DNA of 64,000 nucleotides from an uncultured bacterium (GCA_963826535.1 CAWGXL010000011.1:448809-512808), one strand, 5' to 3'. Positions 25,843 through 64,000 are shown, counted from the stretch's first letter. Numbers and translations: made by a program. Notes: generated by a model from the letters alone, not told the origin.

Positions 25843-26314
25843 GCGAAGTTCCTTGTCGGGCAAGTTCCGACCCGCACGAAAGGTAGAACGACTGAGTAAC
25901 TGTCTTAATCATCTATCCGGCGAAATTGAGATGGCTGTGAAGACGCGGCCTAGGTATACATGGACAAAAAGACCCCGGGAGCTTTACTGTAGCTTGGCAT
26001 TTGCAAGCTCGTTTTAATTGTTTAGAATAGGAGGGAGACTTCGGTCAACAGTGAAATACCTCTCTTTGAAATGAGCGAGCATCACTTCTAGCCGCATAAA
26101 AATACGGCAGAGGGACATTGTCTGGTGGGCAGTTTTACTGGGGAGGTAGACTCCTACAACGCAACGGAGTCGTGCAATGGTTGGCTAATCTTGAATGGAA
26201 ATCAAGATGATAGCATAAAGGCAAAAGCCAGCTTGACTGCGAGACCCACAAGTCGAGCAGGTACGAAAGTAGGCCTTAGTGATCCTCCGATGCTTGGTGG
26301 CAAGCACGGAGCTT

Positions 26315-26347
<33 letters not shown>

Positions 26348-26390
26348 GATCGCATCCAAGCGTCCACAGCGACGATGCGGTTTGGCACCT

Positions 26391-26728
26391 TAAGTAACAT
26401 TGGGGCGCCTATAGAGCAATCTGTAAGTCTGGTTATTCAATAACGCATTTAGAGAGTGCGGTGAATAAAAATACTAGTCAAAATCGGTGAATACCATTGA
26501 TATGAACAATTAATGGTTAATACCGAGGTTCTGTAAAGCAGAATGATCTTTATGATACTGCTGGCAGCACCGTATCGACTTTTATGTTCAGTTAATATGG
26601 GCATAAAGAGAAGGGGCTTTTGTTCCCGATTTAACGGGGCAAAAAATTATAGTCCTTCTAAAACACTAGCTCCTTTAGCAATAGAGGATGAAGGTATAGT
26701 CAACGCGTTTGGTAACAAACGAATAGAG
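26391..26728 (+). mobile_element. ORF-less intron at 23S position about 2449 (between GGCACCT and CGATGTCGGCTCATCACATCC)
   Basis: A 338-nt non-rRNA insertion between two perfectly conserved exon blocks. Confidence 0.55.
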
Positions 26729-26789
26729 CGATGTCGGCTCATCACATCCTGGGGGTGGAGAAGCTCCCAAGGGTCCGGCTGTTCGCCGG

Positions 26790-26820
<31 letters not shown>

Positions 26821-26967
26821 GCGTAAGCCAGTTCGGTCTCTATCCTGTATACACGTTTGAGATTTGAGGAGATTTGATCCTAGTACGAGAGGACTGGATT
26901 GAGGGAATCCCTGGTGTGCCAGTTGTTCCGATATTATCGGGCATCGCTGGGTAGCTAGATTCCCATC

Positions 26968-27000
<33 letters not shown>

Positions 27001-27174
27001 GTCTCCAAGATTAGATCTCGATCCCCGATTTATCGGGGGAAAGACCCTGGGAGACTACCAGGTTGATAGGCGGGCGGTGGAAGCTTCGTAAGGAGTTAAG
27101 CTTACCCGTACTAATGGTCGAGGAGTATTTTTTTTCCTATTCTCTTCACTTTTCAAGGAACTTGAATTAGCTTT

Positions 27175-37074: not shown

Positions 37075-37168
37075 TATCAAAATACAAATAATAAAATCCA
37101 AAACGTGTTTTGATATTTGAAATTTGATATTTGAATTTATTTGGAATTTGTAATTTTGGATTTTAGAT
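37060..37168. repeat. AT-rich palindromic element, IVS-type copy (radA-yacL spacer)
   Basis: ccaaataatatcaaaatacaaataataaaatccaaaac / gttttgatatttgaaatttgatatttgaatttatttgg inverted repeat. Near-identical left arm in the 23S IVS. Confidence 0.6.
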
Positions 37169-37177
37169 TTGACTAAT

Positions 37178-44296: not shown

Positions 44297-44367
44297 GGGC
44301 CTATGGTATAACGGTAGCACACTGCATTCGCATTGCAGAGATCCGAGTTCGATTCTCGGTAGGTCCA
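44297..44367 (+). tRNA. tRNA-Ala(CGC)
   Basis: Hand-folded. Acceptor GGGCCTA/TAGGTCC (G3:U70). Anticodon stem CTGCA/TGCAG with loop TTCGCAT. T-loop TTCGATT. No CCA. Confidence 0.75.
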
Positions 44368-44473
44368 CAAAGTAAGTTAAAAGTTTAAAGTGCAAAGTTC
44401 AAAATTATAGATTAAAAGTTTAAAAAATTAAATTTAACTTTGTATTTTGAACTTTGAATTTTTAAGTTAGCTT
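44368..44473. repeat. AT-rich palindromic spacer (caaagttcaaaat...attttgaactttg) between two tRNA-Ala genes
   Basis: Inverted repeat of AGTTCAAA units. Same unit family as the spacers at 48340-48417 and 53322-53422. Confidence 0.5.
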
Positions 44474-48257: not shown

Positions 48258-48417
48258 GGATATCTAATAACTTTAACAATTTTTTCTATATATTGTCAAG
48301 TTAGAAAAATCTTGAGCCTAAGGGGCGGGAGGTAGCAAATTAGTTCAAAGATCAAAGTTAAAAGTTGCAGATAAGAGATCAAAGTTTGTTTTTGCCTTTT
48401 AAAGTTGCGATACTTGA
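48258..48417. repeat. AT-rich spacer with AGTTCAAAG units downstream of the four-helix-bundle gene
   Basis: agttcaaagatcaaagttaaaagttgc...agatcaaagtttg. Confidence 0.4.
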
Positions 48418-48750
48418 TCAGACTATCTTTGCAAGCTCTTCTCTTTCTTTTAATAAAGTATTAATTTCTGTGATAAGTTCTCTATCCAAATCTCTTGCTA
48501 ATGCCAACCAGAATTTTGTCTCATTGGCACTCTTAAGAGCATGATTGAGATAGTTTATAAAGTCTTTTTTACTTGACGCTGCCTGTGCTTCTATGATATT
48601 TGCGCCAATTGAAGTTACTGCTCTGAGTAATTGATCAGATATTACCCGAGCAGATCTTTTTTGAGGAAACTTATCCATCAATTTAAGTACTTGACGAGAG
48701 TGTTGAAAAGCTCTGTGTATAAGTTGTTTTCTAAATTCGTGATTATTCAT
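48418..48750 (-). CDS. four-helix-bundle protein (23S rRNA IVS protein / DGR Avd family)
   Basis: 110 aa. SIGANIIEAQAASSKKDFINYLNHALKSANETKFWLALARDL matches the family signature GANIAEG..R.S.KDF..FL.IA.GS..E..Y.L.LA.DL. Confidence 0.7.
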   Translation of the reverse strand: MNNHEFRKQLIHRAFQHSRQVLKLMDKFPQKRSARVISDQLLRAVTSIGANIIEAQAASSKKDFINYLNHALKSANETKFWLALARDLDRELITEINTLLKEREELAKIV

Positions 48751-48800
48751 AATTTTACGCTTTTAACTTTAACTTTGCATTTTGCACTTTGGATTTTGAA
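48751..48800. repeat. AT-rich spacer (ttttaactttaactttgcattttgcactttggattttgaac) between giant gene 1 and the 4HB gene
   Basis: Same TTTGAA/CAAAG unit family. Confidence 0.4.
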
Positions 48801-51800
48801 CTATGGTGATCCAGTCAGCGGGCCAAACCTCACGGCGGAGTCTTCGTTGTAGAGGGTGCGAATTTGGGTCGCATTGAGGGCGTAGTTGTAGATGCGGATG
48901 TCGTCGATGAGGCCATCAAAAAACTGCTGGTCAACTTCGGTTGAACCAAGACGAAGCTCAGTTGTATCCGTGGTTAAAACTGATCCCGTAGAAACGGTCT
49001 TGACTAAATTTCCATTTAAGTAGAGATAGATAGAGTCTGCTGCATCGTCATAAACTCCCACTAAATGTTCCCACACATTTGTACCAGAAAGAGGATACCC
49101 CTGATCATATTGCGAATTAGCGATCCCCATTGCAAATTCGTTTTCATTATTAATTAGTAGAAAATACAACTGCCCTTTGCGAACAATCTCCCGGAATTGG
49201 CTATCTAGCACATCCCGTTTCACCCAAGCTGAAATAGTCAATTGTGAAGTAATTTGTAATGAGGAAGAATTCGGCATTGATACATAGTCATTCGTCCCGT
49301 CAAATCCTAGGCTACTGTTGAATTTTCCAGAAGTACCATCATGCCACATCTCTGTACTTGTGCCTGAGTTGCAGGTGCCTGCAGTGTCGTTGTCACCGCT
49401 TGTGTCGCCAGGAGTGATGGTGCCGTTGTTGCCTTTGCCTGAGCTATCATAGGCTGTGGTGCCTGTACATTCGTCGAGTTTCCAGTGGCCGATTGGTTTG
49501 CCGCGGTTGTAGATCCAGGCGACTTGGGATTGGGTGGGCGCGTAGTTATACATGCGAACATCGTCTATAGTAGTATCTGGTTCTATTTCCTCGATTAAGA
49601 AAGATTGGCCGGAATTAGCAAACCCGCTTCCGGCATTATATGAGCCCGATCCGGCCAGTAGGCCATCCTTATATACTTGACAGGTGCCATTATCCAAAAT
49701 AAAAACGACATGATGCCATGCATTATTAAGTATGTTTGTAGCATAATCAGTGCACGGATCTTGGTTAGTTCCGGCTGATGTATCAACCCGTATGTATAAG
49801 TCTTTGTTCTGGCTGCCCGCATTGTTGTGTATAGCCCATCCGGTGGTAGCGAAATCCGATTTGTACATAAGTCCATCGAAGTCACCGTTTGCCGTGCCTT
49901 TAACCCAAAATGAAACTGCCATCGTTGTATTTAGATTGATACTTGGGCTGTTGCTAACAGTAATTCCCGCATCACTTTTAAGAAGGAGTCCCTGCCCAAT
50001 TTTGCCGGAAGTCCATGATGCCCCGATTCCCAGGGTGCCGGTGTTGGCGTTGCCGGTGATATCGTTGGCGGTGGTGCCGGTGCGCTCGTCGAGAGTCCAG
50101 TGGCCGACGGGGGCGGGGTTGAGGCCGGCGGCGCAGTTGGTTTCGGTGTTGCCGGGGGGGCAATAGGCGCGGGCGGCGGAGTTGGAGGCTGTGATGCCAT
50201 CGGGATTGGTGGAGAGGGTGCCAAAGACGACGGCTTTGCCTTGGTTGTATTCTACTTTGACTTCGTCGGGGTTGAGGCCGTAGTTGTAGATTTTGACTTC
50301 GTCAATTGAACCTGTCCATGGCAGCCCGCTGCTGTAGGGAAATCCTATAAAGAAATTATTGCTCATGCCTTGAGTAGCACCGCTTGGGGTTGAACCAACT
50401 AAACTGCCATTTTTATATGCGAATAGATTGCCGTTGCTGTGGACCCAAGCAATATGGGTCCACTCGTCTGCTGAATATGTAATTCCGATTCTATCTTGGT
50501 TGCCGTCCCAGTTATACACCCAAATCCTGTCTAAGCCGCCGATAACTCCCCGATATATTCCTGCAAAGCCACCATCATCTCCTATTGCACCTTTTCCTTC
50601 AAAAGCTCCAGAGATAGTAGGAGATGAACCGGTTGGCTTGATCCATATTGAAATCGCAGCTTCAGACGCTGTCATAAGGGATGACATAGTGTTATTGGTT
50701 GCGACGTAGTCATTAGTCCCGTCAAATAGTAGTGCTTTACCGAGTTTGCCTTCATTGGTCCACCCTGAGGTGACTGTAGCAGGGGAGGCCATGCTGGTGA
50801 GGGTGCCATTGCCGGTGGAGCCAAGTGAGCCGGAGTTTTTGGTGGTAGTACCGTAGCCGTCGTCGAATTTGTAGTGGGCAAGAGCTGATCCGACAGGAGA
50901 GCCGACGGCGGGGTGGCCGGCGTTCATGTCTTGGATGATTTGTTTGGGGGTGCGGGCGTAGTTGTAGATGCGCACGTCGTCGATGAGACCGGGAAAGAAC
51001 TCATCGGAACCACGATCGCCTATGCGAACCGGTATATTATTGGTCGTTGATGTCCATGTGCCGCTCGTCGTCGACTTAAATACACCGTCTATGTAGATCG
51101 AGATAGAAGTGGGTGTGTTAACAGCATTCACCAGATGCCATTTGCCGTCATCTATACACTGCTGGGCGGCATTGAGAGAATCAATATCCGACGTTCCCCG
51201 TATTGTCATCCGCGGCATACACTGCCACACTCCCAAATCCCATCCATCGACCCCAGATAAATACTTGCCAATAATAGGCCGAAAACCGGCATTTGAGGTT
51301 TTTACCCAAACAGAAAGAGTGAAGTCTGAAGTGAAATCAAAATTTGATTCATTAGCCACGCTCACATAATCATTCACCCCGTCAAACTGTAATCCCTGTC
51401 CGAGTTTGCCGGCTGCCCAGGAGGGGCCGCCGGTGAGAGTGCCGTTGTTGGCGTTGCTACTGATATCGTTGGCGGTTATTCCTGTGCGTTCGTCGAGAGT
51501 CCAGTGGCCGACGGGGCCGGGGGCCCAGTCAGCGAGGGCGGCGACTTCGGAGGGGGAGAGGGCGCGATTGTAGAGGCGGACGTCGTCGAGAATACCATCG
51601 AGATAACGTGATGGGGCTCCAAGACAATGACCGAATTCGACACTTGATCCGGTTGGCCTTTCAAATGTGTTTGAGTTGGTTGCTTCTAATACTCCGTTGA
51701 CGTACATTCTTGCCGCAGAGCCGTCATATGTGCTTGTAATGTGATACCAGGTATTGGTGGAAACAGTGCTTACGGAGTTAACCCCATTCGCGTTACCTCC

Positions 51801-53321
51801 ATCGTTGGGTACTAAACTGACGGTATTATTGCTGTTGAGGACTAATCCACCACAGGAGCTTGATGTGGTGAAAATGCCTTTGATCGTTGATACCACGTCA
51901 AACTTTACCCAGGTGGACATGGTGAAGGTTGAGGGTATTGTGACTGAGGCACTGACATTATCATCTGTCCCGTCAAACGTGACAGCATTACTAAACTTGC
52001 CGGTGATATTAGCAGCACCATTGTTCCAGGCGGCGTCTTTTGCATTTCCGGAACTGTCGCAGCTGTCATTCACACCTCCGGAACAGGTATTCGCAGCAGT
52101 TTCATCCATTTTCCAGTATCCGGCGAGGCCTTCGTGTAGAGTGCCGGAGGGGTCTTGGCCTATTAGGGTAGCGCTTTGGTTGTAGATAGCTTTTATGTCG
52201 CTGTTGGTGAGGGCGTAGTTGTAGATGCGGACGTCGTCGAGGGGGCCGGGAAAGAAATCACCAGCATTACGAGTGCCTATCGTTACCGGTTCGTTATTGG
52301 TTGTTGACGTCCATGTACCACTCGTCGTCACATTCAATACTCCGTCTATATAGGTTGAGACAGAAGTGGGCGTATTAACTGTAGTCACTAGATGCCAGTT
52401 GCCGTCATCTATCCGCACTGTGGCTTCATTATTAGTATCAATATTTGACGTTCCCCGCAACAAAATCCGTGGCTTGCCGAGGAACACTCCCAAAGACCAT
52501 CCAGTATTAGCGCCAACTTCCTTACTGATAATAGGGCTGTAGCCGGCAAATGTGGTTTTTACCCAAACAGAAAGAGTGAAGTCTGAAGTAAAATCGAAGT
52601 TGGATTCGTTGGCAACACTCACATGATCATTCACCCCGTCAAAGTTGAGTGCTTTGTCGAATTTGCCTTGATTATTCCAGCCGGATGAAATTGTGGCCGG
52701 GGAGGCCATCCCGGTAAGGGTACCATTATTAGCGGAGCTTGTTGTGCCGGAGTTTTTGGCGGTTGTACCGTTGCCGTCGTCGAATTTCCACCAGCCAACT
52801 GGGGCTTTGCCTTTTTCTTCAGTTCCCACCAAAGGGCTTCCGCCTGAGGGAGCGAGAGAAGTGAAAGATGAGACATTCTGGCTGGCTGATTTGGCATCGG
52901 GGTTGCCATAGTAGATAAATCCTGTATTGGCACCATTGTAAATCACCGGGAAGACGACGTCATAGGTGGTTGAGGCATTATTGCAGGTGCCTGTAAGTTG
53001 GTAGTCTAATGCTTTTCCGTTGATATCGGTAAAACGGGTGTCGTCACAGTCGGACTGCATTTTGCCAGCTGAGATAAAGGTGGCAGTATCTACCGTTACC
53101 GTTATCCGTCTATCGCTTGTGATACTTGCATTGTGGGTGAAGCTTATTTTCTGTCTGTAACCATAGCTCGCGTCAAACCAGCCGGCCGCGACTTGAGAGG
53201 GGCGGAAGATGATGAGGATGGCGGGGACGAGGATGAGGAAGGCGAGTAAGACGGCCAGGGAGCGGCGGTAGAGAGTTTTTTTGGGAAAGAAGTTTTTAAT
53301 TTTCATGACAATATGTTTCAT
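48801..53321 (-). CDS. giant (1506 aa) secreted/anchored protein: N-terminal DUF2341-like domain followed by about 7 LamG/concanavalin-A-like lectin domains
   Basis: N-terminal TM or signal anchor. GWFDASYGYRQKISF (DUF2341-like). Repeated LxFDGxNDxVxV...FT.S.W(V/I)K....WH.V......YIDG.....DDVRIYN blocks. Near-identical internal duplication of about 70 aa. Confidence 0.7.
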   Translation of the reverse strand: MKHIVMKIKNFFPKKTLYRRSLAVLLAFLILVPAILIIFRPSQVAAGWFDASYGYRQKISFTHNASITSDRRITVTVDTATFISAGKMQSDCDDTRFTDINGKALDYQLTGTCNNASTTYDVVFPVIYNGANTGFIYYGNPDAKSASQNVSSFTSLAPSGGSPLVGTEEKGKAPVGWWKFDDGNGTTAKNSGTTSSANNGTLTGMASPATISSGWNNQGKFDKALNFDGVNDHVSVANESNFDFTSDFTLSVWVKTTFAGYSPIISKEVGANTGWSLGVFLGKPRILLRGTSNIDTNNEATVRIDDGNWHLVTTVNTPTSVSTYIDGVLNVTTSGTWTSTTNNEPVTIGTRNAGDFFPGPLDDVRIYNYALTNSDIKAIYNQSATLIGQDPSGTLHEGLAGYWKMDETAANTCSGGVNDSCDSSGNAKDAAWNNGAANITGKFSNAVTFDGTDDNVSASVTIPSTFTMSTWVKFDVVSTIKGIFTTSSSCGGLVLNSNNTVSLVPNDGGNANGVNSVSTVSTNTWYHITSTYDGSAARMYVNGVLEATNSNTFERPTGSSVEFGHCLGAPSRYLDGILDDVRLYNRALSPSEVAALADWAPGPVGHWTLDERTGITANDISSNANNGTLTGGPSWAAGKLGQGLQFDGVNDYVSVANESNFDFTSDFTLSVWVKTSNAGFRPIIGKYLSGVDGWDLGVWQCMPRMTIRGTSDIDSLNAAQQCIDDGKWHLVNAVNTPTSISIYIDGVFKSTTSGTWTSTTNNIPVRIGDRGSDEFFPGLIDDVRIYNYARTPKQIIQDMNAGHPAVGSPVGSALAHYKFDDGYGTTTKNSGSLGSTGNGTLTSMASPATVTSGWTNEGKLGKALLFDGTNDYVATNNTMSSLMTASEAAISIWIKPTGSSPTISGAFEGKGAIGDDGGFAGIYRGVIGGLDRIWVYNWDGNQDRIGITYSADEWTHIAWVHSNGNLFAYKNGSLVGSTPSGATQGMSNNFFIGFPYSSGLPWTGSIDEVKIYNYGLNPDEVKVEYNQGKAVVFGTLSTNPDGITASNSAARAYCPPGNTETNCAAGLNPAPVGHWTLDERTGTTANDITGNANTGTLGIGASWTSGKIGQGLLLKSDAGITVSNSPSINLNTTMAVSFWVKGTANGDFDGLMYKSDFATTGWAIHNNAGSQNKDLYIRVDTSAGTNQDPCTDYATNILNNAWHHVVFILDNGTCQVYKDGLLAGSGSYNAGSGFANSGQSFLIEEIEPDTTIDDVRMYNYAPTQSQVAWIYNRGKPIGHWKLDECTGTTAYDSSGKGNNGTITPGDTSGDNDTAGTCNSGTSTEMWHDGTSGKFNSSLGFDGTNDYVSMPNSSSLQITSQLTISAWVKRDVLDSQFREIVRKGQLYFLLINNENEFAMGIANSQYDQGYPLSGTNVWEHLVGVYDDAADSIYLYLNGNLVKTVSTGSVLTTDTTELRLGSTEVDQQFFDGLIDDIRIYNYALNATQIRTLYNEDSAVRFGPLTGSP

Positions 53322-53422
53322 ATTAGTTCAAAGTTCAAAGTATAAAATAATTTTCAATTCGAAATTTTTAATTTTCAATCAAATATTAATGTTTAAATAT
53401 TAAAATTTAAAAACATTTATAA
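53322..53422. repeat. AT-rich palindromic spacer element between giant gene 1 and 4HB gene 2
   Basis: Homologous to 4838-4922. Contains agttcaaagttcaaag. Confidence 0.55.
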
Positions 53423-53791
53423 TTATAATGTATTACTTGCAATTTTAGAAAAAATTAAGGTAAGTTCGTGTGCTTCCTGCCACAATATTCTATATTCTTC
53501 TTTTCCTTCATCTGTTGCTTTTGCTAAAATTCGGAGCCAGTATTTTGTTTCTTTTGATTCTTTTTTACAGATAAAAATTTTATTTTTAAAATCTTTTTTG
53601 CTACTTGCACCATTGGCCTCACAGTAATTTGCTCCCATACTGGTACCTGATCGCACTAGTTGGCCAATAATGGGTCTGGTAACGTCATTTTTAGGCGCTT
53701 TTTTGCAAAGCTCTATAATCTTTTCACTAAACAATGCTGTTCTTTCTTCTAAATCATACTTTCCGCTTTGTTTATTTGTAATTTTATTCAT
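53423..53791 (-). CDS. four-helix-bundle protein (23S rRNA IVS protein / Avd family), second copy
   Basis: 122 aa. SGTSMGANYCEANGASSKKDFKNKIFICKKESKETKYWLRILAKA carries the same signature. Confidence 0.65.
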   Translation of the reverse strand: MNKITNKQSGKYDLEERTALFSEKIIELCKKAPKNDVTRPIIGQLVRSGTSMGANYCEANGASSKKDFKNKIFICKKESKETKYWLRILAKATDEGKEEYRILWQEAHELTLIFSKIASNTL

Positions 53792-53829
53792 TGTGATTTA
53801 ATTGAAAATTTCAAATTGAAAATTGTAAA
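53792..53829. repeat. AT-rich spacer (ttgaaaatttcaaattgaaaattgtaaatt) between giant gene 2 stop and the 4HB gene 2 start
   Basis: Similar to 4896-4922. Confidence 0.45.
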
Positions 53830-56800
53830 TTAATTTATGATCCACCAGTTTACTTTCACGTCATTGGGTTGGAGTTCTTGGAGTTTGATGGAAAAGGTGT
53901 TGTTGTCTTTGGGTCGCGCGCCGATGCCGATGGGTTGGTCAGGTGTGGCGAAGATGAGGGATTTTGTAGTTAGCAGGCTGGTATTGACGTCTATACTGAT
54001 TTCTCCTGCCGGGATGATAATAGAGCCGGCAGCTGTTGATAATGTTGCAGATGGACTGGAAGTAGTATCTGCTGCGATATTGAGTTTGTCGGTATTTATC
54101 TTTTTGACAGTTATTTCACCTTTGGTGGTAATGTTGCCGTTTTCGGTGATTTTTATTTTTCCGTCCAGGATGTCCAAGCCGTAGAGGCCGTGGGATTGGA
54201 GCTTGAGGGAGCCTGCGGAGGTGTTGATCGCAGCAAATCCGTCATCATTAAGACCGTTTATTGAGAGGAGGCCGTTGGTTATATTCCCGGTAACAGAGAG
54301 ATCGGAGAGGGTGGTTCTTCCGAGAACGTTGAGATCGCCTGAGATGGTGGCGAGATTTACATCAAGGTTTTCAAGGCTGAGCTGTAACCCGGCTGATTGA
54401 CTGGCATTTATTGTAGAGAGAATGGGTGATTTCAATAAATCATTTAAGAATGCTGCGTCTGATGCGATTTGTTTGGTCATGTTTTCAAGTAAGCTGATTT
54501 TGTTATCAAGAGTAGAAAGCTGATCCCACTTGGCTAAAGCTTCGCGGGACAAGGTTGAGAGTTGGGCTTCAACTGATGCGAAGCGAGCAGTGTCGCTGGC
54601 GGTTAAGACTGCTTGGGCGGAGGAGGAAGATGTATTTTGATTTAGCAAGTCAGCGATATCGATACCATTTATACTGAGTTTACGGGCATCAATCTTGCCT
54701 GCGGTTAGGTTGGCGATGTCAGCGTCGGAGAAGATGCCGACTCTTTTGATTTCGCCGGTTGGATCGGCGATCTTGAATTTGCCATCGGAAGATGCAGGAT
54801 CGGGGGTGATTGCGATATCGCCTGTTTCTGAAATGGATATGCCTGGGTCGTGCCAGGTTCGACTGACAAAAATTTGAATACTACCAATACTACTCGAGTC
54901 AGAACTTGCATAATTTCCTAATGCCCGGCCAATAACTTCTCCGGCTTGGCTAGCTTTGACTGCGATGCCCGGCACATTTGATGCAGTAAGTAAATCTCCA
55001 TACTTGATTGGTCCATTGGCAGCGGAGACCCTAGCAGGAACTTGTCCTAATAAGCCAACTATTACTTTGTCAGGCCCTTCTTCGCCTCCCTTTACAGCAG
55101 GAGCATCGGAGATGATGCCTAGTATTCTTGGATATGAAGTTGTGCTGCATGGTATAACTCCATGATCACTTTGACAAACCAAAGTTCCACTTGGGAATAG
55201 ATTTCTCTTATCTTCTTCTGTGTAATTTATAGGCAGAATGCTTTCATCAATTGCAAAATACTCGGCATAATCGGCTCCGCCTGTTTGATATGTAACTCCT
55301 GTAGCTCCGTTGCCTATAATTTGTCCTCTTCTGTTTGAGTCTCCGCGCATGAAATTGATGAATGCGTCATTGGCATTTGGATTGGTGGCCGAATTGGCTG
55401 CGCCCATTCTTATGATAAGACCTGTATGACCTGCGGTGTTATTGGCACCTGTATTTTCAATCATGGCTGAAGCTGTTGAGACTAGATTGTTTGATACATG
55501 CAGTTTCCATAATGGTGTTGTTGTACCGATGCCGACGAGGCCGGTGCTGTCAATTCTCATTCTTTCCGAGCCTGCGGTCGAGAGAGCAATGTTGCCGCCG
55601 GTGTAGGCGTCGAAGTTGTATTTGTAGACTCTGGCGTCAGTAATATCTGTAATCCAGAAATAGCCATTGTAATAGGTCATACCAACGGGAGCGTCGCTTC
55701 CGCCGGCGGCAGTGTCAAAGGAGGTGCCTGTATACGTGCCTGTTGTGCTGTATTTGTAGACTTCGTCGTCAGTTGCATCTGTAATCCAGAAATAGCCATT
55801 GTAATAGGTTATGCCATTGGGATTGGTATTACTGCTGGGGGCAGTGTCAAAGGAAAAGTTTGCATAGGTGCCATCGGTGTTATATTTGTAGACTTCTTCG
55901 TCAGCAGCATCAACAATCCAGAAATAGCCATTATAATAGGTTATGCCCCTGGGAGTGTCGTTTCCGCTGGCGGCTGTGTCAAAGGAAGTTCCTGTATACG
56001 TGCCTGTTGTGTTGTGTTTGTAGACTTCGGCGTCAGAAGCATCAGTAATCCAGAAATAGCCGTTGTAATAGGTCATGGCTCTGGGATCCCCATTCCCGCT
56101 GGCTGCGGTGTCAAAGGAGAAGTTGGCATAGCTGCCGTCGGTATTGTATTTATAGACCAGTGCGTCAGAAGTATCAGTAATCCAGAAATAGCCGTTGTAA
56201 TTGGTTATGCCTGTGGGGTTACCATTTCCGCTGGCTGCCGTGTCAAAGGAGCTGTTGGTGTAACCTGAGGAGCCGTTTCCGGAACTCAAAGCAAGAGTGT
56301 AGGCGCTTCCGGTTGCAGTGCCAAAACCATAGAATCCTTGTCCGGTTGTTCCAAGGACGAGGTTGTTGGCCTCGATATTTCCATCGGCTCTAATGTCGCC
56401 GCGTACAGCTAAAGCAGCTGCAGGGGAGGCGCTACCTCCGATACCGATGTTGCCGGCGGTAGTCATGGTCATACGATCAACCCATGAACTCCCATTCCAA
56501 CCGGCAAACCGAAGCGAGTTGTCCGTGCTGTTCATGTAAATAGAATGCGATTCTTCTCTGGTGTCGGGATCAGAAAAAGTCAATCCTAAACTGCCTGCAA
56601 CTGTGCTTTGATGTTCAAGACTTATTGAGCCTACAACGTTCAATGTTTCTTGCGGATTAGTCGTGCCGATGCCGACGTTGCCGTTTTGTTTGATTACAAA
56701 GCGATTCAGGCCGGAGGAGGAGGCAGTGAAGAGGTCGCCTACGCCTTTGTTGTCAACGACCATTGCCGCGAAGGAGGATTGGGCGGAGATGGAGGCAGCG

Positions 56801-59800
56801 GGTTCAGTGCCGAGATTGCTTCTTACATCAAAGGTAGCCTGCGCTGAGTTAGCAGTGCTGCCGCCAAGGAGTAAGCGCAGGTTTTGGGTTGGTGACCAGC
56901 TATTATATGTTCCACTTGTAGGGACATTACCGATACGAAGGGTATTATCTGTTCCACTGGTTGTCGCAGCACCCAAACCCCATGCACCTGAGTTGTTCCA
57001 ATTTCCAACATAATTTGCGAAGGGAGTTCCTGATGAGTAATCGCTGGAGAAGATAGATTTGGGAAAGTTTGTATCTCCATTATTGCCCACTTGTAATGCG
57101 GCTAATGGACTGGTTGTTCCTATTCCCACATTACCGCTGTTGGCAATAACAAATTTGCTGGCTCCGGATTTGGAGGCGGTGAAGAGGTCGCCTGTACCAG
57201 TGTTATCGACTAGCAAACTTGCAAAGTGGGAGTTGGCTGATATTGATGCTGCAGGAGTAGTGGCGTTGTTGCCACGGATGTCAAGGGTGGCGAGGGCGGC
57301 GGAGGTGGTGCCGATGATGACTCTGCCGTTAGTATCAATCTTCATTCTTTCAGAGCCTGATGTTGAGAGGGCGATGGAGCCGCCAGTGTAGGCATCAAAG
57401 TTGTATTTGTAGACTTCGTCGTCAATATTTTCAGAAATCCAGAAATATCCGTTGTAATAGGTTATGCCATTAGGATCATTGTTCCCGCTGACAGCTGTGT
57501 CAAAGGAGGTGCCAGTATAGACGCCGTCGGTGCTGTATTTGTAGACTTCGTCGGCACCACCATCAACAGTCCAGAAATATCCGTTGTAATAGGTTATGCC
57601 ATGGATTTGGGTGTTCCCGCTGGCAGCTGTGTCAAAGGAGGTGCCTGTATAGATACCGTCGGTGCTGTATTTGTAGACTTCGCTGTCAGTAAAATCAGTA
57701 ATCCAGAAATAGCCATTGGCATAGGTTATGCCAGTAGGATCACCGTTCCCGCTGGCGGCGGTGTCAAAGGAGGTGCCTGTATAGATACCGTCGGTGCTGT
57801 ATTTGTAGACTTCGTCGTCAACATTATCCGCAATCCAGAAATAGCCATTGTAATAGGTTATGCCAAATGGATCACCGTTCCCGCTGGCGGCTGTGTCAAA
57901 AGATTTGTTTGCATAGGTGCCATCGGTGTTGAATTTGTAGACTTCGTCGGCACCAACATCAACAGTCCAGAAATAGCCGTTGTAATAGGTTATGTCCAAG
58001 AGACCACTATTCCCGCTGGCGGCTGTGTCAAAGGAGCTGCCAGTGTAGCCTGAGGCACCATTTCCAGAACTCAGAGAAAGGGTGTGGGCGTTTCCGGTTG
58101 CAGTGCCAAAGCCGTAGAATCCTTGGCCGGTTGTCCCAAGAGCTAGGGCGTTGCTTTGTATATTCCCATCCGCTCTAATGTCACCACGTACGGCTAATGC
58201 CGCGGCAGGGGAGGCATTCCCACCGATACCGACGTAGCCTACACCGCTGGGGTTGAGGAGGGTGTTGCCTGTGGTGTTGTAGGTTGAAGAGTTGCCGAGA
58301 GTAAGAGTTCCTCTGTTTGTGGTTGCGAGTGTACCATTTCCTGTGAGATAGGCTGCGTTATTGCCTGAATTGGCTGAGATTGAAGCAGTTGGTGTTCCGC
58401 CTGCGACGTTGAGGAAGCCGAACTTGGCACTGGTTGTGGCAGTTGCTCCAAGTAAGAGATCATCGGTAAGGTTGGAAGGAGCGAGAGCGCCTGAGATTCT
58501 TTGCCAGTAGCCAACTACTCCGGAGGTGGCACAGTCTTGTCCGCTGATACAGAGAGTTCCACTTGCATCTGGTAGAGTCCAGGTCTGAGTACTTGTTGCG
58601 GCAGAGGCTAAAGTACTTAAGACATTTGTGGTTCCGGCAAGTTGGAGATTGCCGTTGTTAAGAATTGTGAATTTGGTTTTTCCGGATTTGGAGGCTGTGA
58701 AGAGATCGCCGACACCTGAATTGTCAACAATTAAAGAGGCGAAGGAGGATTGTGCGGAGATGGAGGCGGCGGGGGTGGTGGCGGAGGTGCCGCGGACGTC
58801 GAGGGTGGAGAAGAGTGAGTTTGTGCCTGTTCCTATGCCAATCCGTTGATTGGTTGAATCAGCATTAAAAAAGGTCGTACTAGCGGCATCCAGGATACGG
58901 AACGATTGCGTAGTGTTATTGGCGACACTGAAGAGAGCCTCGGTGTCACTGATCGAAAAGGCTATGTTGTTGTTGTCTTCATTAATAACTCTGAACAAAT
59001 CCTCATCGCCGGCGCCCCAGATGGCTACTCCGTCGTCGGTTAGTTTTATGCCTCCGGAGTCATCTGATCCTCCATATTGGAGTATAAGACCGTTTCCGCT
59101 ATTTCCATAATTCTGCAAATTAGTTAGAGTTCCTCCTCCTAGGCTGCCTGTAACCGTAGGTGATGAACCGACAAATATTTTAGTATTGCCATTGGCAATG
59201 TCTGTAACTGGTGAGAAGAGGGCTAATTTTCCGCTTTGTTCCACAGTGAATCTGGGCAGGCCGCTTGAGGAAGCTGTGAAGAGGTCGCCGAGGCCTTTGT
59301 TGTCGACGACTAAGGCGGCGAAGGAGGATTGACCGGAGAGTGAGGCAACAGGAGTGGTGCCGGAGTTGCCGCGGACATCGAAGGTGGCGAGGGCTAATGG
59401 GGCATTGATGCCTACACTGCTGCCTTCTCCTGTCAAATCAAAGTTTATATTACCTCTGTTGAATGTACGCAGGGTGAGGTCGTTGCTTTCAAAGATTTCG
59501 CCTGCTTCAAGGGTGAGGGGGCCGTAGGATTTTATGAAGCTGGCGGTTTGGTTGGTGAATTGGAGGTCGTAGGCGATTGAGACGTCGCCTGCGGCGGTGA
59601 ATTGGTGGGGGGCAGCTGAGGTGATTTGGGTTTTATCTACTTTGAAGACGGTGGAACCGTTATCTGTGATATTTAAGAGGGTGGCCAAAGTGGTGGTAGA
59701 TCCTGCAATTTGGAGTAGGGCGTCAGGTGTGTTGGTGTTGATGCCTATATTGCCGTTTTGTTTGATGACGAAGCGGTTGAGGCCTGAGGAGGAGGCTGTG

Positions 59801-62800
59801 AAGATGTCACCGAGGCCGCGGTTGTCGACAACCATGGCGGCGAAGTTGGAGTTGGCTGAGATTGAGGTGGCAGGAGTTGTGGCTAAATTGCCGCGGACAT
59901 CGAGGGTGGCGAGAATTGTATCTGTTCCAATACCTAAGTTCCCACTTTGATCCAATGTCATAAGAGGATTGGTGTTACGGATTTCACCTGCTGTTGTATA
60001 ATCCCATGAAAATTTATCACCGTCATTCATTCCTGCCATCCAGGCATTTGCGCCTGTATTTGCATTTCTATATGTTATGTATTTTTCACCAGTGTCTCCT
60101 CCGGTGTTTGCGCCTATGGTGATGGTTGTGTCTACAGTTCCACCACCGTCACCAAGAAATGAAGCAACATTCTCAATAGCAGTTCCTGTAGTCCTTACGT
60201 CCAATCTGGCTAATGGGTTCGTCGTGCCGATGCCGACGTTGCCTGCACCATTGGGGTTGAGGAGGATGTTACCAGTGGTGTTGTGGGTTGAGGAGTTTCC
60301 TAGAGTAAGTGTCCCTCTGTTAGTGGTTGCGAGTGAGCCATCGCCTGTAATGTAGACTGCGTTGTTGCCGGAATTGGCAGAAATGGAGGCTGTTGGGGTA
60401 CCGCCTGCGACGTTGAGGAAGCCGAATTTGGCTGAGGTTGTGGCTGTTGATCCGAGTAGAAGATCATCGGTTATATTGGTGGGAGCGAGAGCGCCTGAGT
60501 TTCTTTGCCAGAAGCCAACTACTCCGGAGGACGCACAGCTTTGTCCGCTGATACAGAGAGTTCCTGTTGCATCGGGTAGAGTCCAGGTTTGAGCGCTTGT
60601 TGCGGCAGAGGCTAGGGTACTTAGGAAGTTTGTGGTTCCGGCAAGTTGGAGATTGCCATTGTTTAGAATGGTAAACTTGGTGGCTCCACTCTTGGAAGCT
60701 GTGAAGAGGTCGCCTGAACCATTGTTGTTTACTAACATAGTGGCGAAATTGGTGGAGCCTGAGAGAGAGGAGATGGGAGTGGTGGCGGAGTTGCCTCTGA
60801 TGTCGAGGGTGGCGAGGGGGGAGGTGGTGCCGATGCCGACGTTGCCAATACTTGAGATACGCATGCGTTCAGCAAAGGCAACTCCTGCCTGAACGGTGTA
60901 AAATCCAAGATAGCCATTATTGTTTCCACTAGTGCTGTTTTCTTTAGCGCCCCGAATACCTCCAAAGACACCAGGATCATTACTAGCACGATTACCACCC
61001 AAAGAAACCATGGCTCCAACATCTGTTCCATGGGCGTCTGTTGTGAATGCTGTGATATTGCCGAGGTTGGTAGTTGAAGCAACAACTGACGTGCCGGAAA
61101 AGGCATTTGGTGCATAAACCTGCAACTTGGTATCCGGAGATGTCGTGCCAATGCCCACATTGCCGTTTTGTTTGATGACAAATCTGTTGAGGCCGGAGGA
61201 GGAAGCTGTGAAGAGATCGCCGAGGCCTTTGTTGTCGACTACTAAGGCGGCGAAGGAGGATTGGGCGGAGATGGAGGCGGCGGGGGTGGTGCCGGAGTTG
61301 CCGCGGACGTCCAGGGTGGCGAGGGGGGAGGTGGTGTTGATGCCGACGTTGCCGGAAGTGTCAATCCGCATGCGTTCACTACTCGAAGATGTCTTGAAGA
61401 CTAAGCTCGCGTTCGAGGCAGCTAATGAAATCTCTCCAGCCCCTGAGTAACCCAATCTTCCGTTGATACTACTACTATCAACATAAGTCGGTCCCCAGCG
61501 AATCAGAGAATCGTCTGAACCAGTAGTGGAAAAAACGTCTAGAACACTAGTTGAGAATTGACTTAATGTGGCTGGAGTAGAGCCGTTATAGAGATAGGTT
61601 TTGCCGTTGTACACTTCCAGCCCGGAGTTAGTGACTGCGCCATTCCCTTTTACCGTTAATGGTGAAGTAGGACTTGTGACACCGATGCCTACATTGCCGG
61701 TGCCGTTGGGGTTGAGGAGGATGTTGCCGGTGGTGTTGTAGTTTGAAGAGTTGCCGATGGTGAGCGTGCCTCGGTTGGTTGTTGCGAGTGTGCCATCGGC
61801 TGTTAAGTATGCACCTACACCATTTAGGCCTGAGGAGACTGAGGCGATTGGAGTTCCTCCTGCCATATTGAGAACGGCGAATTTGGCAGAAGTTGTAGCA
61901 GTTCCACCAATCAGGAGATCTTTGGTGCTGTTGTTGGGGTAAAGCGCTCCAGCTGTGGAATCCCACCAATTGGTTCCTGCACCTAGAGCACAGCTTTGCC
62001 AAGTGGGGGCAGAAGCACCTGAGACAAGACAGAGGTTTTGTGAGGCTGTGGTGGCTTGGGCTAAGACACCTGTGGTTTGGGTGCCGTAGAGCACAGCATT
62101 TTGCCCTGTGAAGCCCGGAAGAGTAATTCCTTGGCCTGATCTGCCAAGGGTGAGAGTGGTGGCATTAGTTGTACCGATACCAAGAGTACCGGCTGTCAAA
62201 GTATCAATGTTCTGTGCAGCTGCGATTCTAAGATCGCCTCCATTTGTGATGACAAACTTGGTTATTCCTCCTGCAGAAGCAGTTAAAATATCTTGATTTT
62301 CAATTTGGTCAAATATTGCCAGGGATTTGCCTGTTGTCCCAAAGCTCAAAGGTCGGGATACATGCAACTGGCTGATAGGACTACCTTCTCCAACACCAAG
62401 TTGTCCGTTTGAGAGAATAGTCATTCGGTTATTAAACCCGCTTGTTCCCCGTGTATAGAATTCCAGTTGAGCATAGGCGTTGGATTGATCAATATTTTTG
62501 GAAGCTATGCCTGAGGTAATAGCGCCGGAGCCGTGGAAAGAAAGTTCTGTAAAGTTATTTGTGGTTGAATCGCTATTTCTAATACCCAGATGCGAGAAAG
62601 AAGAGAAGGCGGCAGTTGATGGGTTGGCGCGGTTAATATCCAGAGCATATTGAGCTGCTCTGTTAATTCCAACACCTCCGGTATTATTGAGAGGGGAGAG
62701 TGTGATATTGCCTGTTGTATCACCTCCCAGAGTTAAGGTCTGGTTGGCGGTAGATTGGATAGTTGGTGTTCCGTAGAGTTTGAGTGCTCCTGAGATGGAG

Positions 62801-64000
62801 GCTGTACCATTGACGTCGAGAAGGGCAGTTGGGGTGGTGGTGCCAATGCCGATATTGCCGCTGCTATTAATCCTCATTCTTTCTGAGCCTGCGGTTGAGA
62901 ATGCGATGGTGCCGCCTGTGTAGGCGTCGAAGTTATATTTGTAGACTTCGTCGTCAGCATCATCAGAAATCCAGAAAAAGCCATTGTAGAAGGTTATGCC
63001 ATCCGGATCGCCGTTGCCGCTCGCAGTTGTATCAAAGGATGTTCCAGTATACGTTCCGTCGGTGTTGAATTTGTAGACTTCGTCATCACCATCATCAGGA
63101 ATCCAGAAATAGCCATTGTAGTAGGTTATGCCTTCCGGATCGTCGCTTCCGATGGCGTTGGTGTCAAAGGAAGTGCCGGTATAAGTGCCGTCGGTGTTGT
63201 ATTTGTAGACTTCGTCATCACCATCATCAGCTATCCAGAAATAGCCATTATAATACGTTATGCTTTCCGGATCGGCATTACCGCTGCCAGCTGTGTCAAA
63301 GGAAGTGCCGGTATAAGTGCCGTCGGTGTTGTATTTGTAGACTGCATCGTCAGTCTCATCAGGAATCCAGAAATAGCCATTGTAGTAGGTTATGCCTTTT
63401 GGGTTGTCGTTTCCGCTGGCGACTGTATCAAAGGAGCTGTTGGTATAAGTGCCGTCGGTGTTGTATTTGTAGACTTCGCCATCTATGTCATCCGTAATCC
63501 AGAAATAGCCGTTGTAATAGATTATGCCCTCGGAATTATCATTTCCGCTAGCGGATAGGTCAAATGAGGTGCCAGTGTAACCGGAGGTACCGTTTCCGGA
63601 ACTCAAAGCAAGGGTGTGGCCGGTGCCTCCGGTTCCAGTGCCAAAGCCGTAGAATCCTTGGCCGGTTGTCCCGAGGGCGAGGTTGCTAGTTTGGATATTT
63701 CCATCCGCTCTAATGTCACCGCGTACGGCTAATGCTGCGGCGGGGGAGGCGTTGCCTCCGATACCAACCCAACCTACACCGCTAGGATTTATGAGTATGT
63801 CTCCTGTTGTGTTGAAGGCGGAGGAGTTTCCAATTGTTAGTGTTCCCCTGTTTGCTGTGGCGAGTGTTCCATTGCCTGTGAGGTAGGCTGCATTGTTTCC
63901 TGAATTGGCTGAGATGCTCGCAGTTGGAGTACCGCCTGCGACATTGAGGAAGCCGAATTTGGCAGAGGTTGTGGCTGTACCGCCAACTAAGAGGTCAAGT
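53830..64000 (-). CDS. giant repeat protein (more than 3389 aa; N-terminus lies beyond the window): three beta-propeller-like modules of YYNGYFWI..D.DDEVYKYNTDGTYTGTSFDT blades, G/S/T/N-rich fibre repeats, tail-fibre-like C-terminus
   Basis: The reading frame is open from 63606 to the window edge with no stop, and the track start at 63606 is an internal TTG. Three clusters of 5-6 blade repeats of about 40 aa. Repeated ATLDVRGNSGTTPAASISAQSSFAALVVDNKGLGDLFTASSSGLNRFVIKQNGN units. Long near-identical intragenic DNA repeats. Confidence 0.7.
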   Translation of the reverse strand, partial: LDLLVGGTATTSAKFGFLNVAGGTPTASISANSGNNAAYLTGNGTLATANRGTLTIGNSSAFNTTGDILINPSGVGWVGIGGNASPAAALAVRGDIRADGNIQTSNLALGTTGQGFYGFGTGTGGTGHTLALSSGNGTSGYTGTSFDLSASGNDNSEGIIYYNGYFWITDDIDGEVYKYNTDGTYTNSSFDTVASGNDNPKGITYYNGYFWIPDETDDAVYKYNTDGTYTGTSFDTAGSGNADPESITYYNGYFWIADDGDDEVYKYNTDGTYTGTSFDTNAIGSDDPEGITYYNGYFWIPDDGDDEVYKFNTDGTYTGTSFDTTASGNGDPDGITFYNGFFWISDDADDEVYKYNFDAYTGGTIAFSTAGSERMRINSSGNIGIGTTTPTALLDVNGTASISGALKLYGTPTIQSTANQTLTLGGDTTGNITLSPLNNTGGVGINRAAQYALDINRANPSTAAFSSFSHLGIRNSDSTTNNFTELSFHGSGAITSGIASKNIDQSNAYAQLEFYTRGTSGFNNRMTILSNGQLGVGEGSPISQLHVSRPLSFGTTGKSLAIFDQIENQDILTASAGGITKFVITNGGDLRIAAAQNIDTLTAGTLGIGTTNATTLTLGRSGQGITLPGFTGQNAVLYGTQTTGVLAQATTASQNLCLVSGASAPTWQSCALGAGTNWWDSTAGALYPNNSTKDLLIGGTATTSAKFAVLNMAGGTPIASVSSGLNGVGAYLTADGTLATTNRGTLTIGNSSNYNTTGNILLNPNGTGNVGIGVTSPTSPLTVKGNGAVTNSGLEVYNGKTYLYNGSTPATLSQFSTSVLDVFSTTGSDDSLIRWGPTYVDSSSINGRLGYSGAGEISLAASNASLVFKTSSSSERMRIDTSGNVGINTTSPLATLDVRGNSGTTPAASISAQSSFAALVVDNKGLGDLFTASSSGLNRFVIKQNGNVGIGTTSPDTKLQVYAPNAFSGTSVVASTTNLGNITAFTTDAHGTDVGAMVSLGGNRASNDPGVFGGIRGAKENSTSGNNNGYLGFYTVQAGVAFAERMRISSIGNVGIGTTSPLATLDIRGNSATTPISSLSGSTNFATMLVNNNGSGDLFTASKSGATKFTILNNGNLQLAGTTNFLSTLASAATSAQTWTLPDATGTLCISGQSCASSGVVGFWQRNSGALAPTNITDDLLLGSTATTSAKFGFLNVAGGTPTASISANSGNNAVYITGDGSLATTNRGTLTLGNSSTHNTTGNILLNPNGAGNVGIGTTNPLARLDVRTTGTAIENVASFLGDGGGTVDTTITIGANTGGDTGEKYITYRNANTGANAWMAGMNDGDKFSWDYTTAGEIRNTNPLMTLDQSGNLGIGTDTILATLDVRGNLATTPATSISANSNFAAMVVDNRGLGDIFTASSSGLNRFVIKQNGNIGINTNTPDALLQIAGSTTTLATLLNITDNGSTVFKVDKTQITSAAPHQFTAAGDVSIAYDLQFTNQTASFIKSYGPLTLEAGEIFESNDLTLRTFNRGNINFDLTGEGSSVGINAPLALATFDVRGNSGTTPVASLSGQSSFAALVVDNKGLGDLFTASSSGLPRFTVEQSGKLALFSPVTDIANGNTKIFVGSSPTVTGSLGGGTLTNLQNYGNSGNGLILQYGGSDDSGGIKLTDDGVAIWGAGDEDLFRVINEDNNNIAFSISDTEALFSVANNTTQSFRILDAASTTFFNADSTNQRIGIGTGTNSLFSTLDVRGTSATTPAASISAQSSFASLIVDNSGVGDLFTASKSGKTKFTILNNGNLQLAGTTNVLSTLASAATSTQTWTLPDASGTLCISGQDCATSGVVGYWQRISGALAPSNLTDDLLLGATATTSAKFGFLNVAGGTPTASISANSGNNAAYLTGNGTLATTNRGTLTLGNSSTYNTTGNTLLNPSGVGYVGIGGNASPAAALAVRGDIRADGNIQSNALALGTTGQGFYGFGTATGNAHTLSLSSGNGASGYTGSSFDTAASGNSGLLDITYYNGYFWTVDVGADEVYKFNTDGTYANKSFDTAASGNGDPFGITYYNGYFWIADNVDDEVYKYSTDGIYTGTSFDTAASGNGDPTGITYANGYFWITDFTDSEVYKYSTDGIYTGTSFDTAASGNTQIHGITYYNGYFWTVDGGADEVYKYSTDGVYTGTSFDTAVSGNNDPNGITYYNGYFWISENIDDEVYKYNFDAYTGGSIALSTSGSERMKIDTNGRVIIGTTSAALATLDIRGNNATTPAASISANSHFASLLVDNTGTGDLFTASKSGASKFVIANSGNVGIGTTSPLAALQVGNNGDTNFPKSIFSSDYSSGTPFANYVGNWNNSGAWGLGAATTSGTDNTLRIGNVPTSGTYNSWSPTQNLRLLLGGSTANSAQATFDVRSNLGTEPAASISAQSSFAAMVVDNKGVGDLFTASSSGLNRFVIKQNGNVGIGTTNPQETLNVVGSISLEHQSTVAGSLGLTFSDPDTREESHSIYMNSTDNSLRFAGWNGSSWVDRMTMTTAGNIGIGGSASPAAALAVRGDIRADGNIEANNLVLGTTGQGFYGFGTATGSAYTLALSSGNGSSGYTNSSFDTAASGNGNPTGITNYNGYFWITDTSDALVYKYNTDGSYANFSFDTAASGNGDPRAMTYYNGYFWITDASDAEVYKHNTTGTYTGTSFDTAASGNDTPRGITYYNGYFWIVDAADEEVYKYNTDGTYANFSFDTAPSSNTNPNGITYYNGYFWITDATDDEVYKYSTTGTYTGTSFDTAAGGSDAPVGMTYYNGYFWITDITDARVYKYNFDAYTGGNIALSTAGSERMRIDSTGLVGIGTTTPLWKLHVSNNLVSTASAMIENTGANNTAGHTGLIIRMGAANSATNPNANDAFINFMRGDSNRRGQIIGNGATGVTYQTGGADYAEYFAIDESILPINYTEEDKRNLFPSGTLVCQSDHGVIPCSTTSYPRILGIISDAPAVKGGEEGPDKVIVGLLGQVPARVSAANGPIKYGDLLTASNVPGIAVKASQAGEVIGRALGNYASSDSSSIGSIQIFVSRTWHDPGISISETGDIAITPDPASSDGKFKIADPTGEIKRVGIFSDADIANLTAGKIDARKLSINGIDIADLLNQNTSSSSAQAVLTASDTARFASVEAQLSTLSREALAKWDQLSTLDNKISLLENMTKQIASDAAFLNDLLKSPILSTINASQSAGLQLSLENLDVNLATISGDLNVLGRTTLSDLSVTGNITNGLLSINGLNDDGFAAINTSAGSLKLQSHGLYGLDILDGKIKITENGNITTKGEITVKKINTDKLNIAADTTSSPSATLSTAAGSIIIPAGEISIDVNTSLLTTKSLIFATPDQPIGIGARPKDNNTFSIKLQELQPNDVKVNWWIIN

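Follow-up and report, generated by a model that had tools for sequence, protein, structure and literature searches.

We analysed a 64,000-nt stretch of DNA from an uncultured bacterium (GCA_963826535.1 CAWGXL010000011.1:448809-512808), hereafter the window, in which all coordinates are counted from the first letter; judging from the names of its homologues, the host probably belongs to the Candidate Phyla Radiation (CPR/Patescibacteria), near Levybacteria. Towards one end of the window, two very large genes on the minus strand are each followed by a small open reading frame (ORF) of the four-helix-bundle (4HB) family PF05635/TIGR02436. In the direction of transcription the order is a giant ORF, 38 nt, the small ORF 4HB-2, 101 nt, a LamG gene, 50 nt, the small ORF 4HB-1 and, after a further 160 nt, a TPR gene (46011-48257, minus strand). 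The original prediction, which had been made from the sequence alone, had proposed two consecutive pairs of a giant gene and a 4HB gene, and the coordinates agree with its gene order, common strand and spacers of 38, 101 and 50 nt. The giant ORF (53830 to the window edge, minus strand) encodes at least 3389 amino acids, has its N-terminus past the window and matches nothing in Pfam; its frame runs for 3389 codons without a stop and is open to 63999, while the start chosen by the ORF caller is a TTG at 63606. Three arrays within it (55615-56251, 57402-58048 and 62925-63549) each hold about five copies of a 132-nt (44-aa) repeat encoding a motif that resembles YYNGYFWI...VYKYNTDGTY. The LamG gene (48801-53321, minus strand) encodes 1506 amino acids with six Laminin_G_3 domains (E 2e-141) and an N-terminal membrane anchor. 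No terminator-like site was found in the window between the giant, 4HB-2, LamG and 4HB-1 genes. A separate promoter-like site precedes the TPR gene at 48270-48299 (TTGACA-18-TAAAGT) and is also present in a relative (locus L094).

PF05635/TIGR02436 is a very large family (one query matched more than 3000 clusters), whose function, to our knowledge, is known solely for the members associated with diversity-generating retroelements (DGRs). Membership of both small ORFs had been predicted, and hidden Markov model searches placed both above the curated cut-offs: 4HB-1 (48418-48750, minus strand, 110 aa) matched PF05635 with E 2.3e-22 and 79.7 bits (cut-off 33.8) and TIGR02436 with E 1.6e-25 and 89.4 bits (cut-off 24), and 4HB-2 (53423-53791, minus strand, 122 aa) matched them with E 1.5e-15 and 57.7 bits, and E 4.7e-21 and 75.1 bits, respectively. 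A six-frame phmmer search showed these two to be the only PF05635-type ORFs in the window. The motif RxxxSxxxNxxE, described for homologues of XCC0516 (PMC3936711), is present as RAVTSIGANIIE in 4HB-1 and as RSGTSMGANYCE in 4HB-2. Among solved structures, the nearest in sequence are 2RLD (E 1.7e-14, improving to 7.8e-26 when a profile is used) and 2GSC (4e-4), and both of these PDB entries hold five chains. The 4HB-1 ORF ends at a premature TGA, 13 codons ahead of the canonical stop of the family at 48379-48381; past this TGA the frame goes on and is conserved, reading KIV*SSIATLKGKNKL where the family has KILGSSISTLKGKNKL, so that the TGA may be a recent nonsense mutation, an error in the sequence or a codon that is read through. 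No match to PADLOC or PHROGs was obtained, and we therefore rejected a defence or phage origin.

The spacer 5' of each 4HB ORF proved to be an inverted repeat of the spacer 3' of the same ORF, with the ORF as the loop of the hairpin. The spacers had been predicted to be palindromic elements of the same unit type as the intervening sequence (IVS) of the 23S rRNA gene; the IVS-like units of about 7 nt are indeed what the arms consist of, but the spacers are not palindromic in themselves, as the upstream and downstream spacers pair with each other. We refer to each unit of two arms and an ORF as a cassette. Cassette 1 (type 1; 48341-48803, minus strand) comprises a left arm at 48751-48803 (TAGTTCAAAATCCAAAGTGCAAAATGCAAAGTTAAAGTTAAAAG...), the ORF at 48418-48750 and a right arm at 48341-48387 (...CAACTTTTAACTTTGATCTTTGAACTA), and its first three bases are the TAG stop codon of the LamG gene. 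Cassette 2 (53342-53838, minus strand) comprises a left arm at 53792-53838 built of CAATTTT units, the ORF at 53423-53791 and a right arm at 53342-53422, and it starts at, or adjoins, the TAA stop codon of the giant gene. Its arms at 53349-53373 and 53800-53824 are 92% complementary and lie inside a 72-nt stretch of 72% complementarity; this inverted-repeat core is clear, while the ends are ambiguous, with no clear boundary or target duplication. The minimum-energy folds of both cassette regions close on the arms and leave the ORF as the loop. Neither cassette contains a recognisable promoter or terminator. The two 4HB proteins share 36% identity and the units of their arms are unrelated, which places them in different subfamilies. 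Furthermore, a relic type-1 right arm (TTTGAACTTTGAACTA, with the end AACTA) lies directly 5' of the LamG start codon (53322-53346, minus strand); it contains an exact 16-nt match at 53324-53339 and aligns with type-1 right ends.

The same architecture was found well beyond the window. We sampled 80 4HB loci, one genome per species (80 species-level genomes), from CPR, Bacteroidota, Oscillospiraceae/Ruminococcus, Omnitrophota, Ignavibacteria, Actinomycetota, metagenome-assembled genomes labelled Gammaproteobacteria and others, with 1003 ORFs of the same loci as controls, and scored inverted repeats by local alignment of the 150 nt upstream against the reverse complement of the 150 nt downstream. 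The median score was 39 for the 80 4HB genes and 18 for the control ORFs (Mann-Whitney 1e-38), and 81% of the 4HB genes exceeded the 95th percentile of the controls, which 5% of the controls do by definition. The best period was 7 nt in 128 of 160 4HB flanks (80%) against 501 of 2006 control flanks, and the mean lag-7 autocorrelation was 0.447 in the former and 0.316 in the latter (2e-50). While the hairpin design does not change, its repeat unit does so by subfamily: it is AAAGTTN in type-1 arms, CAATTTT in those of cassette 2, AATTGAC for gut Clostridia and Bacteroidales, and CGAAATC in locus L097. Arms of one unit, (AATTGAC)n / (AATTGTC)n, flank 4HB genes both in gut Clostridia (L072, one of the Oscillospiraceae/Ruminococcus loci L072, L073 and L077) and in Bacteroidales L090, with four copies per arm in examples from Oscillospiraceae and Bacteroidales. 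Counts of neighbour families, with LepA_C upstream in four loci and HemN_C downstream in five, suggest lepA and a hemN-like gene as the two neighbours of the Clostridia cassettes. Candidate cultured carriers of such cassettes are Maribacter arcticus DSM 23546 (locus L086), Bacteroides thetaiotaomicron, from which 2RLD comes, and Victivallis vadensis.

Within the type-1 subfamily, to which 4HB-1 belongs (64-82% protein identity), the nucleotide sequences of the arms can be aligned across Levy-, Davies-, Roizman- and Woykebacteria, Moraniibacteriota and Parcubacteria, as well as with a contig binned as Micrarchaeia. The cassettes have the ends TAGTT...AACTA, and the right arm opens with AAACTTTGA, which contains the canonical stop codon. 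Mean pairwise identity was 73-76% in the arms, a figure that may be inflated by aligning low-complexity DNA, as compared with 74% at second codon positions, 45% at third positions and 33% at four-fold sites. The nonsynonymous divergence (dN) of the type-1 protein was about 0.22 and the synonymous divergence (dS) was saturated in most pairs; the protein is thus under purifying selection, and with dS saturated the age of the type-1 copies could not be estimated from synonymous sites. Type-1-like AAAGTTN cassettes also occur on contigs binned as a Micrarchaeia archaeon or Gammaproteobacteria, namely L018 (JAVZXS010000014.1), where LamG and giant genes adjoin the cassette, L024, L025 and L028; either CPR DNA has been misbinned here or cassettes of this kind have moved between very distant taxa.

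The arrangement resembles that of the IVS in 23S rRNA genes. The IVS of Coxiella has a 28-bp terminal stem, in which RNase III cuts, and three tandem GACAGAT heptamers before the start codon of S23p, their copy number varying by strain (PMC4990558). In the IVS with an S23p ORF of Coxiella burnetii and Leptospira, as in the cassettes, terminal inverted repeats around a PF05635 ORF pair into a long stem, tandem heptamers stand directly before the start codon, the element is AT-rich and its distribution is sporadic; furthermore, the window itself holds an ORF-less hairpin of the IVS unit type at helix 45. The cassettes differ from these IVS in that both window cassettes and the 80 sampled relatives lie between protein-coding genes and not in rRNA helix 45 or 25 (no 23S rRNA was present in the fetched 4HB loci), in that the ORF here is under purifying selection and that of Coxiella is reportedly decaying, and in that excision by RNase III has been demonstrated for the rRNA copies only. 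Since the window and sampled cassettes share the design of the Coxiella IVS, we class the window cassettes as IVS-type elements outside rRNA. We found no published description of hairpin-bracketed PF05635 genes outside rRNA in a partial coverage of the literature, which does not prove novelty.

Hairpins of the same kind that lack an ORF are scattered through the window. The 23S rRNA gene has about 167 extra nt at helix 45, and this insert folds, as had been predicted, as a long hairpin of 7-nt units without an ORF (23945-24100, plus strand; dG -64.9 kcal/mol, z -6.8); a 13-mer, TTCAAAATCCAAA, is common to it and to the left arm of cassette 1. A second copy of this IVS-type hairpin lies at the 3' end of radA (37040-37175, plus strand), with 81% column identity to the helix-45 copy over about 130 nt, and a third at the end of a small ORF (5204-5332, minus strand), which matches the helix-45 copy in blocks of 44 nt (95% identity) and 29 nt (97%). 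In both places the left arm contributes to the protein: the C-terminal residues and the stop of RadA (IKNSKFKASNSK*; window 37030-37075) come from it, and so do those of the small ORF (5204-5260). An ORF-less hairpin with type-1 arms stands between two tRNA genes (44365-44472, plus strand; dG -22.8 kcal/mol, z -3.6), and another with cassette-2-like arms at 4838-4946 (plus strand). In radA, immediately past the zinc ribbon, four tandem GTTCAAA/AGTTCAA heptamers with the sequence of the left arm of type 1 continue the reading frame (35767-35800, plus strand) and add about the residues FKVQSSKFKV. ORF-less type-1 hairpins were also found in other fetched loci. The same hairpin families thus exist with and without an ORF, within and outside rRNA. 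The original prediction had cautioned that homology between the flanks of the 4HB genes and the IVS-type element could not be demonstrated; with an ORF-less type-1 hairpin between tRNA genes, type-1 arms conserved together with the gene, and copies of the helix-45 hairpin at the ends of protein-coding genes, this caveat is largely lifted.

We then considered where the cassettes lie. Both neighbours were on the strand of the cassette in 67 of 77 cases, against 557 of 938 controls, and the median gaps between the cassette ORF and its neighbours were 55 and 63 nt, so that the arms nearly fill the junction. The neighbours belong to 143 Pfam families upstream and 139 downstream, including LepA/HemN, SHMT, DnaK, AlaRS, RpoB, GatA/B, MacB/FtsX and MreB, and the commonest of them, LamG, accounted for 5 of 83. 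Neighbours spanning some 140 families on each side, housekeeping genes included, are at odds with the proposal that insertion takes place specifically 3' of giant genes and into 23S helix 45. In CPR loci, 8 of 36 cassettes adjoined a gene of at least 1000 aa, against 2.1 expected from the make-up of the junctions (P ~1e-4); leaving out the window, 6 were observed and 1.9 expected (P 0.003), and no such excess was seen in the non-CPR loci. In about half of the CPR cases the giant gene lay upstream, in the others downstream. Type-1 cassettes follow LamG-type genes in L016, L017, L018 and L020, and two type-1 copies of another genome, 80% identical to each other, have neighbouring genes of 1129 aa and at least 2723 aa. 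The excess next to such large genes in CPR is approximately four-fold. The association with giant genes is a positional bias, real but partial. A third large gene of the window (27413-32065; 1550 aa, no Pfam match), which ends 81 nt from a 5S rRNA gene on the opposite strand, has neither a 4HB cassette nor a heptamer hairpin at either end.

The TPR gene downstream of cassette 1 served as the anchor for a comparison of orthologous junctions, as this gene and the block following it (LysM/M23 peptidase, Rho and pilin) are conserved in relatives. The segment upstream of TPR-LysM/M23-Rho was hypervariable across L094-L103, holding a giant gene, a LamG gene, PA14-domain proteins or toxin-antitoxin pairs. 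A LamG homologue is followed directly by TPR, with no cassette, in L094 (TPR identity 65%), and a homologue of the window giant protein is followed directly by TPR in L096 (60%; same C-terminus NWWI[IV]N*) and in L093 (46%). Upstream of TPR lie toxin-antitoxin genes in L095 (65%), PA14-domain proteins in L100 (60%) and a type-2-like cassette on the opposite strand in L097 (57%), and a type-1 cassette lies upstream of a more distant TPR homologue in L022 and L017. A closer pair of filled and empty junctions was sought among further TPR orthologues, which yielded only empty or rearranged junctions. The empty junction of L094 reads GGATCACCA-TAA-ACCC and the filled junction of the window reads GGATCACCA-TA[GTTCAAAATCC...CTTTGAAC]TA-ATTTGC. 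This fits an insertion of cassette 1 at the TA of the LamG TAA stop codon, in which the TA would have been duplicated and the element would have provided the new TAG stop. Since the two window cassettes are of different subfamilies, with 36% protein identity and unrelated arm units, they represent two separate insertions in the hypervariable surface-protein region upstream of the conserved TPR gene. Taken together, the CPR loci point to a hypervariable surface-protein region in which cassettes accumulate; we attribute the giant-gene bias, as a conjecture, to accumulation in such insertion-tolerant regions, and a benefit of the cassettes for very long transcripts is a further conjectural possibility.

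Based on these observations we consider it likely that each 4HB gene forms the loop in a hairpin cassette of the IVS type, which resides in operons and has spread by insertion, with the giant genes as its neighbours and not its clients. Such a cassette consists of a left arm of tandem 7-nt repeats, a PF05635 ORF whose start and stop codons lie at the stem base, and a right arm of the complementary repeats; it sits at gene ends in same-strand arrays and would be read through from the upstream gene, here the giant or the LamG gene. In the transcript the arms would pair into a predicted stem of 25-50 bp, which is in principle long enough for RNase III, and by analogy with the 23S IVS this enzyme may cut the stem, releasing the 4HB message (its start codon adjoins the stem) and separating the flanking messages. 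The cassettes and their ORF-less derivatives would spread, or would formerly have spread, as small non-autonomous insertions at TA, cassette 1 having probably entered at the LamG stop codon. We infer both the mobility and the processing by RNase III. Of the two readings offered in the original prediction, cargo of a mobile hairpin element or dedicated accessory factors of the giant proteins, the former is thus the better supported, in a modified form that keeps the hairpin with the ORF as its loop, adds the ORF-less copies and drops the specificity for giant genes and helix 45. Several observations weigh against this picture. We found no transposase, integrase or reverse transcriptase able to move the cassettes; the ORF-bearing copies within one genome are diverged (36% identity in the window, 80% in the other genome) and synonymous sites between type-1 copies are saturated, all of which counts against active or recent mobility of the ORF-bearing form. 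The insertion at TA is modelled on one filled/empty pair, with flanking proteins 65% identical, and the terminal TA is indistinguishable from part of the inverted repeat. Arm covariation was visible only between subfamilies and not within type 1, where duplex energies of own arms equalled those of swapped arms, a result that gives no support either way as the arms are all alike. Cassette 1 itself scored 26 for inverted repeats, just under the control 95th percentile of 27, and the four-fold excess of giant genes in CPR is left unexplained by the model except through insertion tolerance.

If, instead, the 4HB proteins were dedicated accessory factors (for instance chaperones, secretion factors or regulators) of the giant and LamG proteins encoded upstream, one would readily understand why two pairs stand in tandem in the window, why in L016, L017, L018, L020, L022 and L099 a LamG-type or giant gene stands immediately before the type-1 4HB gene, and why CPR cassettes show an excess next to genes of at least 1000 aa. 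The orthologous giant-TPR and LamG-TPR junctions of relatives that lack a 4HB gene speak against such a role; besides, 78% of the CPR cassettes and essentially all the non-CPR ones adjoin ordinary genes, many of them housekeeping, the giant gene is downstream as often as upstream, the third large gene of the window has no 4HB gene, and the family is kin to nucleic-acid-associated proteins (S23p, Avd) and not to secretion factors, and we regard this explanation as improbable. Kinship with Avd raises another idea, namely that the pairs are parts or remnants of a DGR, with the 4HB protein as Avd and the giant genes as diversified targets: PF05635 is homologous to Avd (PMC10053308). When scored with the Avd model NF033474, 4HB-1 reached 18.9 bits, far under the cut-off of 80, and 4HB-2 gave no match, while a profile of the 4HB proteins matched 2RLD and 2GSC in the PDB and not Avd. 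DGRs are common in CPR and target surface proteins; nevertheless, in the 64-kb window the 3' ends of the three large genes had no repeat partner outside their own gene, and a crude six-frame scan revealed no YxDD ORF with the DGR-type SQ motif. With the Avd model so far under its cut-off, no template/variable-like repeats (TR/VR) and no reverse transcriptase (RT) motif, we rejected a DGR for the window, in agreement with the original prediction, which had claimed none, and hold it to be most implausible. Equally hard to credit is that the complementarity of the flanks merely reflects AT-rich low-complexity intergenic DNA and that the adjacency to giant genes is coincidental. The intergenic DNA here is indeed AT-rich and full of similar short repeats, and the score of cassette 1 falls just short of the control percentile, but controls from the same loci scored far lower, the hairpins recur in genomes that differ widely in composition and belong to different phyla, arms and gene stay together from one genome to another, and the 7-nt period is specific to 4HB flanks.

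The strongest of the competing explanations, though still an unlikely one in our judgement, is that the cassettes are no longer mobile and represent old, domesticated RNA-processing modules, in which the hairpin punctuates operon transcripts, leaving a 3'-end duplex upstream and a 5' end downstream, and the 4HB protein tunes this by binding the heptamer stem. It would account for arms as conserved as second codon positions alongside saturated synonymous sites, for the purifying selection on the protein, for the divergence of copies within a genome and for the strong same-strand preference, and the possible benefit for very long messages would suit the giant-gene bias. It fits less well with the sporadic presence of cassettes at orthologous junctions, with ORF-less copies scattered over rRNA, a tRNA spacer and the inside of a coding region, with the relic arm that adjoins cassette 2, and with near-identical ORF-less copies (95-97% over 29-44 nt) within 64 kb. 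These latter points indicate turnover, and the domesticated and mobile views are not exclusive.

The 23S rRNA gene that carries the helix-45 hairpin (22701-27134, 4434 nt) holds further inserts. A group I intron (25581-25804) with a LAGLIDADG ORF (24947-25468) makes up one of them, which measures about 980 nt and lies at E. coli positions 1917-1932, and another of 338 nt at E. coli 2500/2501 (26391-26728) is overlapped by a 105-aa ORF with no Pfam match. Upstream of the gene (window 1-22700) there is one tRNA gene (22312-22384) and no 16S rRNA gene; as no 16S precedes the 23S in the window and only one tRNA does, the rRNA genes appear to be unlinked in this genome.

The closest functional analogues of the cassettes may be the rRNA IVS and those miniature inverted-repeat transposable elements (MITEs) whose hairpins RNase III cuts, such as Correia. 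The Correia/NEMIS elements of Neisseria and MITEs such as ERIC are short, have terminal inverted repeats, insert at gene ends, are co-transcribed, form hairpins cut by RNase III, duplicate TA and have no ORF. The cassettes are like them in their inverted repeats, in their dispersed ORF-less copies and in one junction consistent with TA duplication, and unlike them in holding a conserved gene of 110-125 aa in the loop and in having arms that are tandem 7-nt arrays and not unique inverted repeats; we know of no partner transposase for them. Avd belongs to a homologous four-helix-bundle family; the cassettes differ from it in that the Avd-specific model failed, the window lacks an RT or TR/VR pair, and the setting is a hairpin cassette and not a retroelement. 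Based on this kinship with Avd and on the fixed 7-nt period of the arms, our favoured guess is that the 4HB protein binds the heptamer repeat stem. Genes of the same family, annotated as 23S_rRNA_IVP, have been described inside cas operons, e.g. between cmr3 and cmr2, wedged likewise between operon genes of the same strand, and their position was interpreted as a functional connection to the Cas nucleases (Zhang and Ye, NAR 2014, PMC3936711). Our results suggest that any operon can host such a cassette, which differs from that reading. More speculatively, and with the odds rather against it, heptamer-armed PF05635 genes may form one widespread class of self-contained elements, of which the 23S IVS was the first-noticed landing site; a pentameric 4HB protein could recognise the stem of its own 7-nt repeats, as RNA or DNA, and thereby drive spread or gate processing by RNase III. 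In that case operon transcripts would be punctuated under the control of a protein, and in CPR the cassettes would favour the ends of genes for giant surface proteins.

Where the IVS of 23S rRNA and its S23p ORF come from, and what they are for, has been a standing question since the early 1990s. As family members in many phyla share the heptamer-armed hairpin, with the sampled ones in operons and ORF-less hairpins nearby, the rRNA IVS would be recast as a special case of a general cassette. The findings also warn that the neighbours of 4HB genes, giant proteins here and Cas proteins earlier, should not be read as their functional partners. Testable hypotheses follow, namely that RNase III cuts operon transcripts at the arms and that the 4HB protein binds the 7-nt repeats.

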